From Alphaproteobacteria bacterium (GTDB taxonomy: Bacteria; Pseudomonadota; Alphaproteobacteria; Rs-D84; CACZYB01): DNA of 64,000 bases. The position numbers were made by a program, and so were the translations under genes. A model generated the notes under the pieces. The model was not told the origin of the DNA. It worked only from the letters and a program-made list of their open reading frames with translations, and ran no database searches. Each line of letters begins with the position of its first letter. The first letter of the stretch is position 1. The DNA is taken from NCBI GenBank assembly GCA_016297965.1, contig JAEDDP010000001.1, forward strand, positions 75,347 through 139,346. Direction: 5' to 3'. Shown piece after piece: positions 2,238 through 38,084 of this stretch.

Positions 2238-3605
2238 TTATAAATTTGAACATATACGTTCAGCTTCATTTATCAATGTTTCAATTTGTGGATTGGTCAA
2301 CATTAATTCACGAACTTTTTTAACTGCATAAATAACAGTTGCATGATCACGACCACCAAAACTTTTTCCAATTTCAGGAAGTGATTTTGATGTCAAATTT
2401 TTTGAAATATACATTGCAATTTGACGTGGAATGACAATGTCTTTTTGTTTCTTTTCGCTGTCAATATCTGAAACACTTACATTCCATTTTTCAGCAACAA
2501 CCCGTTTAATATCTTGGATATTTAATGGTTTCGTGTTTACAGCAAGAATATCAGAAAGAATCTTTCGGATATTGGAAAGTGTAGGTGCTTCGTTCATCAA
2601 AATTGTGTGTGCAGAAATCCTGTTTAGGGCGCCTTCAAGTTCACGAATGGATGTTGTGATTTTTGATGCAATAAATTCACCAACACCAGCCTGTAATTCA
2701 AGATTTAGAACCTTACACTTTGATTGTAAAATTTTAAGGCGTAAATCATAGTTTGCAGGAAGTATATCAACAACAAGTCCAGATGCAATTCTTGATTTTA
2801 TGTTATCGTTTAGACCGTCAATCAAAAACGGAGAACCATTTGCGGTGATGATAACTTGCTTTCCATTTGTAATGTAATCATCAATTATGTGGAATAACTC
2901 CTTTGCGGTGGATTCCTTACCGGCGATGAATTGAATATCGTCAATCATTAAAATATCCGCAGACTTAAAGCTTTGTTTGAAACGATATGTATCCTTTTCA
3001 TTTAATGCCTTTAAAAATGAATACATAAATTTGTTTGCGGAAATGTAAATAACACGCTTGTTTGAATGGGTTGCCTCCAATTCGTTGGCAAGAGCGTTTA
3101 ATAAATGTGTTTTACCGAATCCAGAAAGAGAATGAATAACAATAGGATTGAAAGTTGTTGTTTCTTGGATTGCAACACGTTTTATACTTTCAAATGCAAG
3201 GGCGTTTGAGTTATCTTTAACAAAAGAATCAAATGTAAATTTTGATAATGTTTTTGTTCCGATATTTGCAATTGTTTCAACTGGATGTGATTGTGTTTGA
3301 GATTCAAAACTTAATAAATCATTTTGTGATTGTTGAATTTCTTCGGCAATAACCTTTGGTGTTAATTTTTTTGTTCCTACATTTATTTTAATATCCTTTA
3401 CATCAGGACAAAATGTATTAACAGCAGAGATAAGGTGAGAGAAGAAATTTCTTTTTGCCCAATCGGCGATAAAACGGGTTGGTGCATTTAGATATAATGT
3501 ATCAAGATCAATCTTGTCAAAACTAAGCGGGGCAATCCAACTGAGATATTCAGATGTTTTAATGCTTTTTTGAACAGTCTCCTGTATCTGTTTCCAACAC
3601 TCCAT
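2238..3605 (-). CDS. dnaA: chromosomal replication initiator DnaA
   Basis: AAA+ Walker A GFGKTHLLNALANE, and a C-terminal DnaA-box-binding region (FGGRDHATVIYAVKKV). Start trimmed to MECWKQIQ, which matches the DnaA N-terminus. Confidence 0.9.
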   Translation of the reverse strand: MECWKQIQETVQKSIKTSEYLSWIAPLSFDKIDLDTLYLNAPTRFIADWAKRNFFSHLISAVNTFCPDVKDIKINVGTKKLTPKVIAEEIQQSQNDLLSFESQTQSHPVETIANIGTKTLSKFTFDSFVKDNSNALAFESIKRVAIQETTTFNPIVIHSLSGFGKTHLLNALANELEATHSNKRVIYISANKFMYSFLKALNEKDTYRFKQSFKSADILMIDDIQFIAGKESTAKELFHIIDDYITNGKQVIITANGSPFLIDGLNDNIKSRIASGLVVDILPANYDLRLKILQSKCKVLNLELQAGVGEFIASKITTSIRELEGALNRISAHTILMNEAPTLSNIRKILSDILAVNTKPLNIQDIKRVVAEKWNVSVSDIDSEKKQKDIVIPRQIAMYISKNLTSKSLPEIGKSFGGRDHATVIYAVKKVRELMLTNPQIETLINEAERICSNL

Positions 3606-3946
3606 TTTTAGAAATCCTTCTCTCTTCTTTTTTCCTTTTCTCAATGTGTGTATCATTTTTGATACAGGGTCATATTAGGAAATCAAAAATAAAAAATCTA
3701 GTCGGAAATTATTTTTTTATCCTTGACAAGATTCAATGTTGACACCCCATAAATTTTTTTTATAAAAGTTGTTTTGTGTGGAAGTTTTTTTCATAAAATC
3801 AAATGGATAAATTTATTCAAAATTTTTTTAAAGATTTGAAAATAAAAAGAATCCTTAATTATTGGGGAAGAATCGGCGAAATGCTTCTTGCTTTGATATG
3901 AGAATCATTTTATAATATTTTTACTTTTAATTTAGTGAGGTAAAAA

Positions 3947-4623: not shown

Positions 4624-4980
4624 TTAATTATAAAGTTTTGAAATCATACATTGAACCTGTGCCGCCATAATTTTTGAACCGATTGTATTATCGCGAGCGA
4701 GTTCGTCGGCGGTTAATTTCTTTGTTGCCTTTTTATAAAGATATTTTACATCATCGGCATCAAGTGAGTTCATAACACTTGAAGTCATACATTCACAATT
4801 TGAAGAATTGTTAAATTTTGCCATACAAGCATTTTTCACGGTTGTTTTTGCCGAATTGATATAGATTTTTGAAACCTGAGTTGCAGTATTTTTTAATACA
4901 GATGTTGTTTCATTTGTTTGTGATGGAACACATCCGGCAAGTGATGAAACTACAACTAAACCACATAAAAATTTTTTCAT
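4624..4980 (-). CDS. small Cys-rich lipoprotein, unknown function
   Basis: Lipobox MKKFLCGLVVVSSLAGC; 7 Cys in the mature part. Confidence 0.4.
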   Translation of the reverse strand: MKKFLCGLVVVSSLAGCVPSQTNETTSVLKNTATQVSKIYINSAKTTVKNACMAKFNNSSNCECMTSSVMNSLDADDVKYLYKKATKKLTADELARDNTIGSKIMAAQVQCMISKLYN

Positions 4981-31960: not shown

Positions 31961-32305
31961 ATGGCGTTTTACGAAACTGTTTTCGTTTTGAGACAAGATT
32001 TAACTTCACAACAAGTTGAAGATATTTCTAAGGATTTCAAAAAGATACTTTCTGATGGTAATGCAAAATTACTTAAAGAAGAAAACTGGGGACTTCGTTC
32101 TCTTGCTTATAAAATCAAAAAAAATAAAAAGGGACATTATGTTCTTTTGGAAACTGAGGCTTCTGCCGATGCAATTTCTGAATTTGAAAGAAAGTTGGGT
32201 TTAAGCGAAAATGTTTTAAGATTTATGACAATTAAGCTTGAAAAACCAAGTGAAGGTCCTTCACCAATACTTTCACAAAAAGATACAAGAGATGAAAGGA
32301 AATAA
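31961..32305 (+). CDS. rpsF: 30S ribosomal protein S6
   Basis: [14 protein letters not shown]... is typical of S6. Confidence 0.9.
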
Positions 32306-32310
32306 ATAAA

Positions 32311-32535
32311 ATGGCTATTCAAGAAAGAGTTATGAGAAAGAAAAATGATCCTTTAAAATCAGTTAATATTGATTATAAAGATGTAAAACTTCTTAGAAAA
32401 TTTATTTCTGAACGTGGTAAAATTGTTCCAAGAAGAATTTCTGGAACTTCTGCTAAAAATCAAAGACAATTGGCTAATGCAATTAAACGTGCAAGATATA
32501 TTGCTTTGTTGCCATACGTTGCAAATAATGATTAG
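32311..32535 (+). CDS. rpsR: 30S ribosomal protein S18
   Basis: The ...[28 protein letters not shown] region. Confidence 0.9.
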
Positions 32536-32544
32536 GAGATAAAA

Positions 32545-33153
32545 ATGGAAGTTATTTTATTAGAAAAAATTGGTAAACTTGGTCATCTTGGTGACAAGGT
32601 TAATGTAAAAGATGGTTATGCAAGAAATTTCCTTATCCCAACAGGTAAAGCATTAAGAGTAACAAAAGCAAATTTGGAAATGTTTGAAGCTCGTAAGGCT
32701 GAACTTGCAAAGGCAAGTGAGGAAGCAAAGAAAGTTGCATCTGTTCTTTCTTCTAAAATTAAGGGAAAATCTTTTGTTGTTATAAGACAAGCTGGTGATA
32801 CAGGTCATCTTTATGGTTCTGTTTCAACACGTGATTTGTCTGCTGTGTTAAAGGCTTCTGGTGCTGATGTTGATTATACAAAAATCACTATTGATACACC
32901 AATCAAAGAAATTGGTATTTACGAAGTGAAGGTTGCTTTGCACCCAGAAATCATTGACACAATAAAGGTTAATGTTGCAAGATCAGAAGAAGAAGCAAAG
33001 GTTGCCGAAGTTAATGCAGAAAAGGCACGTAAGCTTGCCGAAGAAAAAGCTCTTAAAGCAAAGGCCGAAGAAAAGGCTGCTAAGGAAGCAAAGGAAGCTG
33101 CTCTTCATGCTGAAAAGACAGAAGAAAAGAAGGAAGAAGAAGCAAATGCTTAA
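32545..33153 (+). CDS. rplI: 50S ribosomal protein L9 with a K/E/A-rich C-terminal extension
   Basis: MEVILLEKIGKLGHLGDKVNVKDGYARNFLIP; about 50 extra C-terminal residues rich in A, K and E. Confidence 0.9.
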   Translation: MEVILLEKIGKLGHLGDKVNVKDGYARNFLIPTGKALRVTKANLEMFEARKAELAKASEEAKKVASVLSSKIKGKSFVVIRQAGDTGHLYGSVSTRDLSAVLKASGADVDYTKITIDTPIKEIGIYEVKVALHPEIIDTIKVNVARSEEEAKVAEVNAEKARKLAEEKALKAKAEEKAAKEAKEAALHAEKTEEKKEEEANA

Positions 33154-33535
33154 TTTTCTTTTTATTCATCAAATTTCGCCCATTGGATTTTTCCGTGGGC
33201 GATTTTTTTGTGGTGTGGGTTTGGATGGTTTGTTTTTCTTTTGTTTGATGATTGGGATGAATGGTTGGGGAGTGGATGACAGACTGGTGAGTGTATGACA
33301 ACCGGAGGGACAGACGATGTCTTCCATTTAGGCTTTAATAGTGTGATACTTTACAGATGTTTTTACATTCCGACCACACCGATTTCTACCTTTGAAGCTT
33401 TCATGCCGACAATCCCTATACAAATTTTTTGTAAAGTGAGAATAAAATCATTTACTTATATTCAAAAAAGTGATACAATAGGGAAAGATTTAGACAGAGA
33501 AAGGAAAGAAAATGTCTAGACAAAATAGACGAATC

Positions 33536-33544
33536 GGGGGGGGG
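33536..33544 (+). repeat. G9 homopolymeric tract (candidate slipped-strand phase-variation switch)
   Basis: Nine consecutive G inside the 19-codon ORF 33512..33571, which carries an AAGGAAAG RBS; a -1 or +2 change fuses it to the downstream gene. Confidence 0.6.
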
Positions 33545-33596
33545 TACACCTGCTTGCATAGTTTCATTTAATCGTTGCAACCCATTGAAAAAGCTT

Positions 33597-34811
33597 ATGA
33601 AAGCTTCGTTGAATTTTCTTGTTTTATTTTCATTTATATTTTGTGATGTATCAAGTGTAGTCCTTGCCGGACGAGGAGGTAGAAGTGGTGGTGGAGCCAA
33701 GAAAAGAGCTAATCGTTCGTCAATGCGACCTTCTGTTCGTGTGTCAAACAGGGGCGGTTCGGTGTCGGCAAAGTCCGATGTAAATACAACTTCGTCAAAT
33801 GTTGCGGTTCAACCGCAGGCTGTGGCTCAACCTGTGGTACAGCCAAGCGTGGCGACGGCTCCGGTTGTTGTACAGGCACCTTCGGTTCAGGAGTCAAGTA
33901 CCAATTCCAATGTTAGCAAGCGTTCCGGTGAAAGCGAAAGAATTACAAAGGCCCGCGAAAATTTGGTGGCAAAAATTGATGACGTGAAAAATAAATGTAG
34001 CGGTATTGCCAGTGGGCTTAGATCCCTATATGGATTTACTGGTACCGCGATGGCTATGGGTGCTGTTACTACAATTGCATCTGGTACTTCTTTGGCGGTG
34101 CAAGTTGTAAGAGATAAAAAAGCGAAAAAGGAGGCAAATGTTGCACAGGGGGAAACTGCCGGTGGGACAACCACTGTCAGTGGAAGTACGGAAAATACAG
34201 AAAACGACAAAGGTAATACTAAGGACAATGGAGGTGGAGGAGATACCAATAGTAGTAAGAATAGAATAACGAATTTATCTACTGGCCCTGTACTCCTTTC
34301 GGGTGTGTCTACTGTGACATCGGCGGTGTCGGCGGTTAATTCCAATAAGGCGAAGAAAAGTGCGGCAAGTGTTGCCGGTGATATGTCGGATTGTAATTCT
34401 GCACTTAAAGCCCTTAAACTTGCGAAAAGTAAGTTTGAAATGATTCTTGATGAGGAAGAAGTGTACGATGATGACGCTCAACTTTCACGGGCTGGTACAG
34501 TGCTTTCCGCTTGTCAAAGTTATGATGATGGCAATATTGATACTGTTAAAAAGATGATGAATGTTTCAACCGGTGTTGCGGGTGTTGGTACAGCCGTAAG
34601 CTTGGTTGGTACAGCAACTGCAGTGGTTGGTGTTGCAAAATCAATCAAAGGGCAAGATGATAAAAAGTTGAATAAGATATCAAAGATTGCAACGGGTGCG
34701 ACGGCGGCGACTGGTGCTACGACCGGTGTGATAGGTGGTATTGCCCAAAGTAAGGCGAAAAAGGATTTTGATTCAGCACAACGGTGTGAGTCTGTCCTTC
34801 GGAATATTTAA
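33597..34811 (+). CDS. secreted Gly/Ala/Thr/Val-rich protein with three glycine-zipper-like hydrophobic segments; unknown function
   Basis: Signal peptide MKASLNFLVLFSFIF. Hydrophobic segments GTAMAMGAVTTIASGTSLAV, GVAGVGTAVSLVGTATAVVGVA and IATGATAATGATTGVIGGIA are each followed by K-rich stretches. Codon usage is GC-richer than the neighbours. Alternative TTG start at 33585. Confidence 0.5.
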   Translation: MKASLNFLVLFSFIFCDVSSVVLAGRGGRSGGGAKKRANRSSMRPSVRVSNRGGSVSAKSDVNTTSSNVAVQPQAVAQPVVQPSVATAPVVVQAPSVQESSTNSNVSKRSGESERITKARENLVAKIDDVKNKCSGIASGLRSLYGFTGTAMAMGAVTTIASGTSLAVQVVRDKKAKKEANVAQGETAGGTTTVSGSTENTENDKGNTKDNGGGGDTNSSKNRITNLSTGPVLLSGVSTVTSAVSAVNSNKAKKSAASVAGDMSDCNSALKALKLAKSKFEMILDEEEVYDDDAQLSRAGTVLSACQSYDDGNIDTVKKMMNVSTGVAGVGTAVSLVGTATAVVGVAKSIKGQDDKKLNKISKIATGATAATGATTGVIGGIAQSKAKKDFDSAQRCESVLRNI

Positions 34812-34997
34812 AACTTTTCTTCTTTTTTGATTGGATGGGAGTGGTTGTCGCCACTCCTTTTTATGGACTGGTTGTGGTTTGTGAGAGGTGTGAATGGTGA
34901 GTTTAAGGGTCCTGTTTTAGGAAATAGGCTTTGTGTGAATTGGAAACTGGTGTGGAGGTCAGAATGATTGGGGCGTTCTTATGGAAAGAGTGGTAGG

Positions 34998-35058
34998 TTG
35001 TGTGTCTGTCATCCTGAATCTATGATATGAGGAGTTGATTGTGTGTTCGTCATCCTGA
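34998..35058 (+). repeat. two copies of a 21-nt direct repeat TTGTGTGTYYGTCATCCTGAA
   Basis: Copies at 34998-35018 and 35038-35058, with 2 mismatches. The second copy runs into a perfect 8-bp hairpin ATCCTGAA-ctcg-TTCAGGAT at 35051-35070. Confidence 0.6.
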
Positions 35059-35382
35059 ACTCGTTTCAGGATCTTTTGTGAGAATCGTGAGGCAAAAAAA
35101 TTCCGAAATGAATCTGGAATGACACTATTTAATGTTTTGAAAAACTATCTTTTTCTTGATGATTTGGATTTTTTGCTTACTTCATTTTCATCGGAAACGG
35201 CCCAAACAAAGCTTATCACCCAAAAAAGGAACGTCCAACCCAAAAATAAATTAAGTACAAAAATTCCCGGAAAAATGTTTCTTTTAGTACGCAAAAATTG
35301 ATGGGAGAAAGTATACAATAAAAAGAATAATCAAAAATATAAATGCAAAAAGAACGTCTATTTATAAATCCATTTTGAAACT

Positions 35383-35459
35383 TGGTGGCGCCCCCCAGAC
35401 TCGAACTGGGGACCTGCGGATTATGATTCCGTCGCTCTAACCAACTGAGCTAGGGCGCC
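35383..35459 (-). tRNA. tRNA-Met (CAT), elongator type; tRNA-Ile2 (lysidine) not excluded
   Basis: Reverse complement GGCGCCCTAGCTCAGTTGGTTAGAGCG...ATCATAA...GGTTCGAGTC...GGGCGCCACCA. 7-bp acceptor with a 1:72 pair, anticodon CAT. Confidence 0.75.
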
Positions 35460-35810
35460 AAAGCTTGTTTTATGGTACTATATTCCGTTCATAAAGTCAA
35501 CAATTTTTGGAAAAAAGTTGAATGGAAGGAAGAAGCCTATTCAAAGACTAGGGAAAGGGGATAAATTTGGAGTTAGGTTAATGGTTATAAAAGTATGGAA
35601 TGTTTAAGCAAATTTTGTTTGGAAAAACTTTAAAATTCAAGTCTTATTTAGGACTAACGGCAGAACTAATAGGCGGACAAATAATAGAAAGTACAATAAT
35701 TAAAACACCGCAGGGAAGATTCTACCAAAGTGGGTTGAAAAAGCTATGTTTCTTTTTTCCTGTTTTTGAATATAGCAGTTGCAGTTTAAGAAAATATTCT
35801 GTAATATTAA

Positions 35811-36470
35811 GTGGTAAAAAATGAAAGGCAAAAAATGTCAAAAGGAATTATTTATATTTTTACAAATGATGCAATGCCGAATTTTATAAAAATTGGAATC
35901 ACAACAGATTTAGAAAGAAGGCTAAGAGAACTTGATACGACGGGAATACCGTTGCCTTTTCGTTGTCATTATGCAATAGAAATTGAAGATTATGATAAAA
36001 AGGAAAGATTTATACACGATGCTTTTGCAGATCACAGAATAAGGCAGAATAGGGAATTTTTCACTTTGGCTCCGGAAAGAGCTGTGTCTATGTTGAAAGC
36101 TATTGGAGGCAAGGAGGTTCAATTCGGAAATAATGAAATGATTGATGAAGAAGGTAATGTTGTTGATGATAATAAAACAGAAAAAAAATTGCGTTCTGCA
36201 TTTACATTTTCAGGAGCAAAAATTCCGGTAGGTTCTGAAATTTCCTTTACAAGGGATGAAAATAAAAAGGCAAAAGTTATTTCTGATAAAAAGGTTGAAT
36301 ATGAAGGAAAAGAGTATTCTTTGAGCCTTTTGGCACAAAGCTTGTTTGAACAAATAGGGTATCACTGGAAGTCTGTGCAAGGTCCGGCATATTTTAAATA
36401 TGATGGGGAAATTCTTTCTGATAGAAGGACTAGATTGGAAGAAGAAAATAGTGGAGATGATGCGGAGTAG
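35811..36470 (+). CDS. GIY-YIG-like T5orf172 (PF10544) domain protein with a DUF4357-like C-terminal region
   Basis: GIIYIFTN...IKIGITTDLERRLRELDTTGIPLPF...REFFTL matches T5orf172. Confidence 0.55.
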   Translation: MVKNERQKMSKGIIYIFTNDAMPNFIKIGITTDLERRLRELDTTGIPLPFRCHYAIEIEDYDKKERFIHDAFADHRIRQNREFFTLAPERAVSMLKAIGGKEVQFGNNEMIDEEGNVVDDNKTEKKLRSAFTFSGAKIPVGSEISFTRDENKKAKVISDKKVEYEGKEYSLSLLAQSLFEQIGYHWKSVQGPAYFKYDGEILSDRRTRLEEENSGDDAE

Positions 36471-36608: not shown

Positions 36609-38084
36609 GTGGATAGACAATCAAAAAATGTAAGTGGAGATTTCCTTCGTAAGCCACCGGCAAGTGTTGAAGCAGAACAGGCGGTGTTGTCGGCGATTAT
36701 TACAAATAATAAGGCATTGGAACGAGTTTCGGAATTTCTTCGTCCGGAACATTTTGTTGAGGTGATGCACCAGAAAATTTATGATGCCTGTCTTCGTTTG
36801 ATTGAAAAGGGGCATTTGGCGGATACCATTACATTGAAGAATTATTTGGAAAGTAATGGAACTTTGGATATGGCAGGCGGTGTTGAATATCTTTCCCAAC
36901 TTGCCAGCTCGTCAATTTCTATTGTAAATGCCTATGATTATGCAAAGCTTGTATATGAATGTGCCCTTAAAAGGAACCTTATTGAAATAGGTACAGATAT
37001 TGTGAATGATGCCTTTGGTGGGTCAAATGGCGATAGTGAGATTTCCGCCGCAAGTCAGATTGATAAGGCGGAAGGACAGCTTTATTCCCTTGCAACATTG
37101 GGGGAAACACAAAGTGGTCCGTCATCGTTGGAAATGACCCTTAGGAACTCTATGCAAACAATTGAGGAAGCTTATCGCGCCGATGGTTCAATTTCCGGAA
37201 TTTCAACGGGAATTAAGGATTTGGATAAAAGCCTTGGTGGATTTCATCCGTCCGATTTGTTGATTGTTGCTGGACGTCCAGGTATGGGAAAGACCGCGTT
37301 TGCTTTGAATCTTGCCGTAAATGTTGCAAATGAAGTGCTTAATCATCGTGGACCGGAAAAGTTGCAGGGGCCAGTTCTTTTTTGTTCCCTTGAAATGTCG
37401 GCGGATCAGCTTGCATCCCGTATTTTGTCATTTGAAGCGGAAGTTAATGGTAATAAAATCCGAAATGGAAGTATAAATGAGGAGGAATTTAACAGACTTG
37501 TTGAATTTCAGCGCGCACTTAAAGATCTTCCAATATTTATTGATGATACGCCGGATATTACCGTTCCGATGATAAGGGCGAGGGCAAGACGTTTGAAACG
37601 GCAGTCCGGTGCGCTTTCCCTTATTGTGATAGACTATGTTCAGTTGTTGAATTCACCGGGTGGAAGAAAGTCCGATAACCGAGTTCAGGAAATTTCGGAA
37701 ATAACCAGAGGGCTTAAAATCCTTGCAAAGGAATTGGATGTGCCGGTTATTGCCTTGTCCCAGTTGTCGCGACTTGTTGAACAACGTGATGATAAGCGAC
37801 CACAGCTTGCCGATCTTCGTGAATCCGGATCTATTGAGCAGGATGCTGACTGTGTTATGTTTGTATATCGTGAGTCGTATTACCATAACAAGACCCGTCC
37901 GATTGATGCGGATGTGACAAGTCAGGAATATATTGCATGGCAGAAAAAGGCGGAACGAATTGAAAATATGGCGGAAATTTTGATTGCAAAGCAACGTCAT
38001 GGTCCAACGGGGGATGTAAAAGTTTCCTTTGTTGGGGAATATTTCAAGTTTGGTGATTTTTATGATGGAAAAATAGAAGGATAA
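36609..38084 (+). CDS. dnaB: replicative DNA helicase DnaB
   Basis: Walker A GRPGMGKTAFALN, Walker B LIVIDYVQLL, N-terminal SVEAEQAVLSAII. GTG start. Confidence 0.9.
   Translation: MDRQSKNVSGDFLRKPPASVEAEQAVLSAIITNNKALERVSEFLRPEHFVEVMHQKIYDACLRLIEKGHLADTITLKNYLESNGTLDMAGGVEYLSQLASSSISIVNAYDYAKLVYECALKRNLIEIGTDIVNDAFGGSNGDSEISAASQIDKAEGQLYSLATLGETQSGPSSLEMTLRNSMQTIEEAYRADGSISGISTGIKDLDKSLGGFHPSDLLIVAGRPGMGKTAFALNLAVNVANEVLNHRGPEKLQGPVLFCSLEMSADQLASRILSFEAEVNGNKIRNGSINEEEFNRLVEFQRALKDLPIFIDDTPDITVPMIRARARRLKRQSGALSLIVIDYVQLLNSPGGRKSDNRVQEISEITRGLKILAKELDVPVIALSQLSRLVEQRDDKRPQLADLRESGSIEQDADCVMFVYRESYYHNKTRPIDADVTSQEYIAWQKKAERIENMAEILIAKQRHGPTGDVKVSFVGEYFKFGDFYDGKIEG

Follow-up and report, generated by a model that had tools for sequence, protein, structure and literature searches.

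What does a run of nine G residues do directly behind a strong ribosome-binding site and just ahead of the gene for a predicted secreted protein? The question arises in the window, the 64,000-nt stretch of contig JAEDDP010000001.1 analysed here, where the G9 tract lies in a short reading frame that opens upstream of the annotated gene and stops before reaching it. We interpret the tract as a putative contingency switch that works by slipped-strand mispairing within the opening codons of the gene itself, ON at lengths of 8 or 11 and OFF at 7, 9 or 10, and we put the probability of this reading at roughly 85%. Its observed basis consists of the anatomy of the region, a length polymorphism confined to the tract, natural alleles in which the short frame and the gene are fused, the poor conservation of the alternative start codon, and the recurrence of the same 5' cassette at several loci.

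The elements of the region are collected in Table 1. The signal peptide was called by eye and by comparison with about 150 family N-termini (short, MKK-type, ending in AxA-like motifs) rather than with a predictor. A first-pass annotation of the window had located the Shine-Dalgarno (SD) sequence, the ATG at 33512, the G9 tract, the TAA and a main open reading frame (ORF) in the +1 frame relative to the leader ORF, and each of these placements agrees with direct reading. The tract begins 22 nt after ATG 33512 and 57 nt downstream of the −10 box of the candidate promoter, which is conserved in all alleles and in the paralog cassettes and sits about 30 nt 5' of the SD sequence. The window has a G+C content of 35% with a strong excess of G over C, and G9 is its sole run of G or C longer than 6; between 0.04 (independent, identically distributed letters) and 0.23 (first-order Markov) G runs of at least 9 are expected per window. 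The first-pass claim that such a run is improbable by chance therefore holds in part: the run is the only one of its kind in the window, but composition by itself would not exclude chance at genome scale, and the argument is carried by comparative data. Measured against a homopolymer threshold of about 7–8 or more G or C, the tract is G9 here and G7 to G11 in relatives.

Table 1. Coordinates of the switch region, the gene and the adjoining repeats in the window
Feature	Position	Strand	Remark
Sigma-70-type promoter candidate, TTTACT / 17-nt spacer / TACAAT, extended −10 TG	33451..33479	+	consensus match
SD sequence AAAGGAAAG	33500..33508	+	AAGGA core 6 nt from ATG 33512
ATG, read as the native start codon of the gene	33512..33514	+	SD-preceded; choice of gene callers in fused relatives
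G9 homopolymer, slippage-prone putative switch	33536..33544	+	direct reading; out of frame as sequenced
19-codon truncated product of the OFF (G9) frame	33512..33571	+	MSRQNRRIGGGYTCLHSFI; stop TAA 33569-33571
In-frame TTG, possible weak reinitiation start	33585..33587	+	no SD; conserved in rplI- and rpmA-type cassettes
In-frame ATG taken as start by annotators	33597..33599	+	no SD; polymorphic ATG/ATA
Sec-type signal peptide MKASLNFLVLFSFIFCDVSSVVLA, likely cleavage after VLA	33597..33668	+	read from the sequence and from comparison of family N-termini
Gene body	33585..34811	+	408 codons from TTG 33585, 404 from ATG 33597
Intrinsic-terminator-like hairpin (34837-34858) and T-run	34837..34866	+	3' of the gene
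Conserved 5' expression/switch cassette: promoter, 5' untranslated region (UTR), SD, start, poly-G, N-terminal extension, signal-peptide coding region	33422..33667	+	
Direct repeat, upstream copy	33265..33292	+	deletion junction of L008 here
Direct repeat, downstream copy	34875..34902	+	

Tract length and reading frame among alleles

Related loci were gathered both via the protein itself and via the flanking L9, S18 and DnaB proteins; the alleles are consensus assemblies from ENA and Logan, with L-numbers labelling loci and P-numbers proteins. The housekeeping DNA shared with these relatives is 95–98% identical to the window, which places them in the same species. At the rplI locus, 16 samples of that species, at about 98% nucleotide identity, carry five tract lengths from G7 to G11: G7 in two (one with an adjacent T>C), G8 in three, G9 in three with a further AG8 that keeps the same frame, G10 in five and G11 in two. 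An alignment of the 16 cassette alleles over 245 nt has 39 substitution columns, and the internal indel columns all fall within the tract. The proposal that tract length varies among isolates is thus borne out within a single species.

Each of the five G8 or G11 alleles forms one uninterrupted ORF from the leader ATG, 581–592 codons long where complete, with the N-terminus MxRQNRRIGGG(G)TPACIVSFNRCNPLKKL followed by the signal peptide; together with G8 alleles at three other loci, the fused ORFs span 545–700 codons. The first-pass annotation had predicted that removing one G or adding two would join leader and gene, and exactly the N-terminus that it foresaw is obtained, in natural alleles as well. 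The G7, G9 and G10 alleles terminate after 15–19 codons (15–16 in the G10/G7 frame). As the window's own G9 frame stops after 19 codons and its G8 and G11 relatives are fused, the suggestion that the locus was sequenced in the phase-OFF state also stands.

In-frame alleles make up 5 of the 16 at the rplI locus; the gene ORF is intact in all of them, OFF alleles included, and its indels are all multiples of three. The 13 alleles fetched via neighbouring housekeeping genes form an unbiased set for frame counts, and among them 5 are in frame, 2 in +1 and 6 in +2, a split that is roughly uniform, as stochastic switching would give.

These alleles also bear on whether there is a switch at all. Fixed strain polymorphisms or assembly errors might account for the lengths, with the window gene being a 5'-frameshifted pseudogene or constitutively expressed from 33597, and we regard this as very improbable. 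Against it stand the five lengths in 16 samples of a cassette otherwise free of indels, the occurrence of both in-frame classes (8 and 11) and the presence of length variation in both ENA and Logan assemblies, even though the comparison rests on consensus assemblies and near-identical alleles often have the same length (the window, L001 and L010 at G9; L002, L016 and L044 at G10). In its favour, tracts are interrupted in two alleles and the gene is missing altogether from one strain; yet the ORFs of OFF alleles stay open with indels only in multiples of three, and at a second locus, rpmA, the length was recovered independently in two samples (L004 and L005). It is also established that G tracts of at least 8 are hypermutable (PMC10327513, PMC8355987).

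The start codon and the mode of control

A motif of SD type (AGGA, GGAG, GAGG or AAGG at −18 to −5) precedes 38 of the 54 first ATGs of long ORFs in the window (70%), compared with 11% of random positions. ATG 33512 has a typical one, whereas TTG 33585 and ATG 33597 are without any, which agrees with the earlier remark that 33597 has no obvious SD sequence. Independent gene callers began the fused ORFs at the leader ATG (L004, L036, L037, L039, L041, L042, L045 and L046). The codon at 33597 is ATG solely in the window, L001, L002/L003 and L010; it is ATA in L016, L044, L006, L009, all long alleles and L004/L005, that is, in 11 of 16 rplI-locus alleles and both rpmA-locus alleles. In L045, a cassette at another locus, there is no other ATG, GTG or TTG ahead of the signal peptide, so that the leader ATG is the sole route to the L045 protein. 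Since 33597 is polymorphic and L045 has no alternative start, we take 33512 to be the native start codon and the G9 allele of the window to be phase-OFF. The first-pass annotation needs revising on this point: it had the main gene begin at ATG 33597 (or TTG 33585), of which the ATG is most likely not the native start given the ATG/ATA polymorphism, L045 and the lacking SD sequence, and it described a separate leader ORF, where the leader is the 5' end of the gene itself and not an upstream ORF (uORF).

We envision that transcription would proceed from the conserved TTTACT-17-TACAAT sequence, with promoter and transcription start both putative, and that ribosomes would load at the strong SD sequence and initiate at ATG 33512. 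With G8 or G11, they would read through GGG-GGG-GGT into a 28-residue N-terminal extension and continue into the Sec signal peptide and the whole protein. With G9, G10 or G7, they would stop after 15–19 codons, leaving the protein absent or present in traces through reinitiation at TTG 33585 or ATG 33597; such low-level reinitiation is possible. Gain or loss of a G during replication would flip the state reversibly, presumably at high frequency and with a corresponding effect at the protein level. Because one cassette would drive several paralogs of a variable family that is probably secreted or at the surface, lineages could express different subsets of it, in line with other host-associated bacteria.

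The TTG deserves separate consideration, because its position corresponds, codon for codon, to that of the conventional start ATG in a tract-less allele, L025. In an arrangement built on it, the true start would be TTG 33585 (or ATG 33597), the ORF from 33512 would be a separate uORF, and the gene would be translated by termination and reinitiation, with the tract tuning where the uORF ends and so giving graded expression in place of an ON/OFF response. We consider this unlikely. The spacing is suitable, in that the OFF-frame stops lie just 13 nt (G9) or about 23 nt (G10) 5' of the TTG, but neither this codon nor ATG 33597 is preceded by an SD sequence in a genome where most genes are, and the leader RNA shows no significant structure (positions 33487–33640 fold no better than shuffled sequences, with a minimum free energy of −28.6 vs a mean of −27.9, z = −0.19). 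Conservation likewise points both ways: the TTG is kept in the rplI and rpmA cassettes, in alignment with the L025 ATG, and a start there gives MKKLMKAS..., which resembles typical family signal peptides; ATG 33597, however, is polymorphic, and the L045-type cassette has no canonical start between tract and signal peptide. The intact ORF in all OFF alleles would suit reinitiation, whereas the in-frame alleles found at every locus, and called as single genes, speak against it.

The same fold result and an Rfam scan across the window, which returned tRNAs alone and hence no leader RNA family, speak against a regulatory leader peptide or RNA attenuator. An effect on transcription, with the tract altering promoter geometry or 5'-UTR structure as in Bordetella fim, Mycoplasma vlp or Treponema pallidum tpr, is given almost no weight. 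A homopolymer near the 5' end of a surface-protein gene would be in keeping with it, as would a second G9 upstream of the L045 promoter, but the tract itself lies past the −10 box and past the SD-preceded ATG, neither in the spacer nor upstream of −35, the leader RNA is no more stably folded than its shuffled counterparts, and the alleles are explained exactly by reading frame (fused at 8 and 11; stopped at 7, 9 and 10). A promoter-spacer homopolymer switch, of the kind represented by Bordetella fim, Mycoplasma vlp and meningococcal porA/opc, was rejected on the same grounds of position, the tract being neither between nor just upstream of the −35 and −10 boxes. A DNA-inversion switch was also rejected: the region has merely short inverted repeats at chance level (11 nt at 33274 and 35004), all of the more than 20 alleles share one orientation, and no recombinase is adjacent.

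Several observations nonetheless weigh against a frame switch at the native start. All nine short-type alleles, the window's included, are out of frame, compared with five of seven long alleles in frame, a contrast that is confounded by phylogeny and assembler. Two short-type alleles have interrupted tracts (AG8; G7 plus T>C), and the short-allele clade may be drifting to a locked-OFF state or using another start. Differences between consensus assemblies could represent slow evolutionary indels, and homopolymers are error-prone in short-read assemblies. The mismatch-repair gene mutL is present, so that switching may occur at modest rates. In the alignment, TTG 33585 coincides exactly with the tract-less start; it would yield a textbook MKK... 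signal peptide, and some tract-independent translation may start from it. Finally, Sec signal peptides rarely have an n-region as long as the 31 residues of the fused protein, and the N-terminal extension occurs in none of the 150 best family representatives of the library search; the only proteins seen to carry it, P0004, P0165 and P0166, are close relatives.

A cassette shared by paralogs

The cassette of the window is 93% identical in nucleotide sequence to that of L004/L005, at the rpmA-asmA locus, where it forms the 5' end of a gene for a 545-residue paralog (P0004) that is merely 46% identical over the remainder of the protein. There the tract is G8 and the ORF fused, and the two samples gave this length independently. 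L004 lies on the same contig as the rplI-locus allele L036 (ERZ27287442 k141_839311), both with G8, so that one genome carries at least two switchable copies. Further family members, 32–38% identical, are encoded between exbBD and groESL (P0165, L045) and between recA and tsaD (P0166, L046); both have a fused G8 cassette that is 87% identical to the window over 33440–33580. The unit of promoter, SD sequence, ATG and poly-G is thus found 5' of members of one family in at least four genomic contexts, over several assemblies.

The tract-less allele shows how this unit may be composed. L025, with flanks that are 98.4% identical, comes from a strain of this species, and in it the same promoter and SD sequence run directly into a conventional start, MRQIFKQSLSFLVLFSFIFCD.... 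Hence the poly-G segment, about 70 nt long, has been added as a module between start codon and signal peptide, and it is polymorphic (present or absent) within the species. One could go further and see the unit of about 245 nt as a portable switch module that recombination has set before paralogs of a new secreted family, and the ATA-to-ATG change at 33597 together with TTG 33585 as giving the always-out-of-frame short clade tract-independent or three-level (fused, reinitiated or none) expression, as an escape from, or a rheostat on, the binary switch; we regard this extension as speculative and rather doubtful.

A DNA-pattern scan for the cassette and a protein-pattern scan, both over GTDB species representatives, gave no match, and an exact 23-mer scan of JGI metagenome contigs gave 0 matches; a search with the 53-residue leader plus signal peptide by itself, a query too short for the word index, likewise returned nothing. 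Logan contigs L003, L006, L011 and L014 end at the borders of the cassette, which may hint indirectly at length changes within a population but is equally explained by the cassette being present in several copies. At the cassette promoter, the end of the public ENA contig L012 (2230-2273) carries an odd sequence, CTGTCTCTTATACACATCTCCGAGCCCACGAGAC, which is a Nextera adapter and thus an assembly artefact.

A hairpin resembling repetitive extragenic palindromic or miniature inverted-repeat transposable elements (REP/MITE), GTCATCCTGAAC...TTTCAGGATC, and the motif ATGACAACCGGAGGGA each occur once in the window (35049-35073 and 33294-33310), both adjoining the gene. They recur beside cassette-bearing paralogs (L004 3590-3880; L045 4748-4829 and 7110-7249; L046 4717-4795), which suggests that hairpin and motif travel with the gene module. 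L045 has a G9 at 4837-4845, in an intergenic element; this run is upstream of the promoter and about 165 nt 5' of the start codon of the cassette. L046 has a G7 at 1637-1643 (C7 on the coding strand) in the intergenic region that precedes a cytidylyltransferase-like gene; these runs may be additional mutable sites.

Comparison with documented systems places the mechanism on familiar ground; what is new lies in the host, in the protein family and in a modular cassette that varies in presence within one species and is found in at least four contexts. In Neisseria pilC the poly-G tract lies in the signal-peptide coding region. The neisserial opa genes, about 11 paralogs, have CTCTT repeats where the leader peptide is encoded; each is switched independently in translation, and the mature parts are variable. 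Mycoplasma hyorhinis vlp and M. bovis vsp combine a conserved promoter and signal-peptide cassette with size-variable surface proteins that have internal repeats and are homopolymer-controlled.

The present locus shares features with each of these. As in Neisseria pilC, lgtA/C/D and pgtA, where transcription is constitutive and the products are surface or host-interaction factors, a G homopolymer occupies the first codons; unlike those genes, and unrelated to them in sequence, the present gene has its tract in an additional stretch of 28 residues that precedes a signal peptide complete in itself. Homology to Neisseria PilC or Opa was not found with Pfam, NCBIfam or PDB-sequence profiles for the protein or for 109 family members. 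Several paralogous loci with a conserved 5' end and a repeat in the leader-peptide region recall opa, but the repeat here is a homopolymer and not a pentamer, the contexts number at least four, with two proven on one contig, and the products are predicted to be alpha-helical secreted proteins in contrast to the beta-barrel outer-membrane proteins of opa. A shared promoter and signal-peptide cassette and size-variable proteins with an internal repeat region recall vlp and vsp; unlike the poly-A of vlp, which lies in the promoter spacer and affects transcription, the tract here lies inside the ORF and would act on translation.

The first-pass annotation had called the arrangement the classic slipped-strand layout, and it does match the poly-G phase variation that has been described for Neisseria and Campylobacter (PMC10327513, PMC8355987). 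Slipped-strand mispairing shifts the ORF frame of the neisserial poly-G genes (pilC, lgtA/C/D, pgtA) by a general mechanism (PMC10327513, PMC2192423), and poly-G/C contingency genes of Campylobacter and Helicobacter have the same layout (PMC10327513, PMC2192423, PMC8355987, PMC11868660). Campylobacter jejuni and Helicobacter pylori are also low-GC and gut-associated, with G/C tracts of 8–11 in coding regions for surface structures and lengths that vary between isolates (PMC8355987, PMC3025981). Their genomes, however, hold dozens of tracts and have no MutL/MutH-type repair, whereas mutL is present here and just two more G/C runs of at least 7 occur away from the cassette tract in the sequence examined from the species and its relatives.

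Almost all known contingency genes that switch through repeats come from cultured pathogens, such as Neisseria, Haemophilus, Campylobacter and Helicobacter, and phase variation of gut commensals has mostly been studied as DNA inversion. The present locus would add a poly-G translational switch of textbook form in a human-gut bacterium that is uncultured and probably alphaproteobacterial, with samples that include non-industrialised populations. It also illustrates that automatic annotation mis-places the start codons of such tract-bearing genes, and public read sets exist in which switching could be measured.

The encoded protein, the locus and the host

The protein belongs to an uncharacterised family, which models and family features indicate to be secreted and all-alpha. 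A profile search of 1.84 billion representative proteins gave 415 clusters at E <= 1e-3 and 156 at E <= 1e-30. Typical members have about 300–330 residues and an ordinary short Sec signal peptide, and the family has four invariant Cys and two hydrophobic stretches rich in Gly, Ala and Thr. Neither the protein nor 109 family members matched Pfam, NCBIfam or PDB-sequence profiles, and tblastn against plasmids yielded nothing significant. AlphaFold models the protein as all-helical, with confident helices at 103–150, 250–320 and 380–404 and a mean predicted local distance difference test (pLDDT) of only 60; Foldseek found nothing significant in the PDB, and its top rows, the alpha-pore-forming toxins MakA, AhlC, SmhB and ClyA, have E > 1 and are not evidence.

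A central low-complexity region (window 34140-34270) is hypervariable, with SGD-rich and NPPxKQ repeats; the repeat region is absent from the window's short 404/408-residue allele and expanded in alleles of 556–569 residues (L037, L038, L039 and L009). Among short alleles the ratio of nonsynonymous to synonymous substitution rates (dN/dS) is 0.4–0.9, and the neighbouring L9 is invariant. These features would fit an accessory, fast-evolving, exposed protein, and control by the putative switch would mark this multi-locus, size-variable secreted family as a likely surface determinant exposed to host or phage.

The gene is flanked by rpsF-rpsR-rplI (31961-33153) on one side and by a tRNA-Met gene on the minus strand (35383-35459) on the other; a T5orf172 gene and dnaB (36609-38084) follow. 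Strain SRR25904988 (L008) is without the entire gene and cassette (window 33293-34874), and the junction falls in a direct repeat of about 28 nt, copies of which stand on both sides of the gene in the window. This makes the gene an accessory one, gained and lost by recombination between short repeats.

The host is probably a low-GC alphaproteobacterium of the human gut. Pointing that way are ParE, MutL and DnaA of Gram-negative type, CarD, the DciA, AsmA and MlaA encoded at related loci, and the absence of priB and ssb between rpsF and rpsR; the related contigs are from human gut metagenomes, some labelled Hadza or Nepal.

The interval from rplI/tRNA-Met to dnaB (window 35383-36470; L026-L031 and L036-L043) is a strain-variable integration hot spot. 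The window has a T5orf172/GIY-YIG-type gene there, and other strains have an OLD-family nuclease with HNH, blocks containing phage lysozyme, or MORN-repeat genes; in some strains small GIY-YIG ORFs lie between rplI and the cassette. The L9 protein (32545-33153) has 202 residues, of which the last 50 or so form a C-terminal tail with abundant Lys, Ala and Glu, and is identical in many strains. The dnaA gene is at 2238-3656 on the minus strand, and the cumulative GC skew climbs monotonically over all 64 kb without a turn at dnaA, so that the replication origin is apparently not beside dnaA within the window. At 12447-18494, three DUF4402 proteins, a 288-residue ORF and a 1041-residue protein with a CarboxypepD_reg-like domain are encoded together, a cluster suggestive of a surface system of the secreted-fibre or pilus type.

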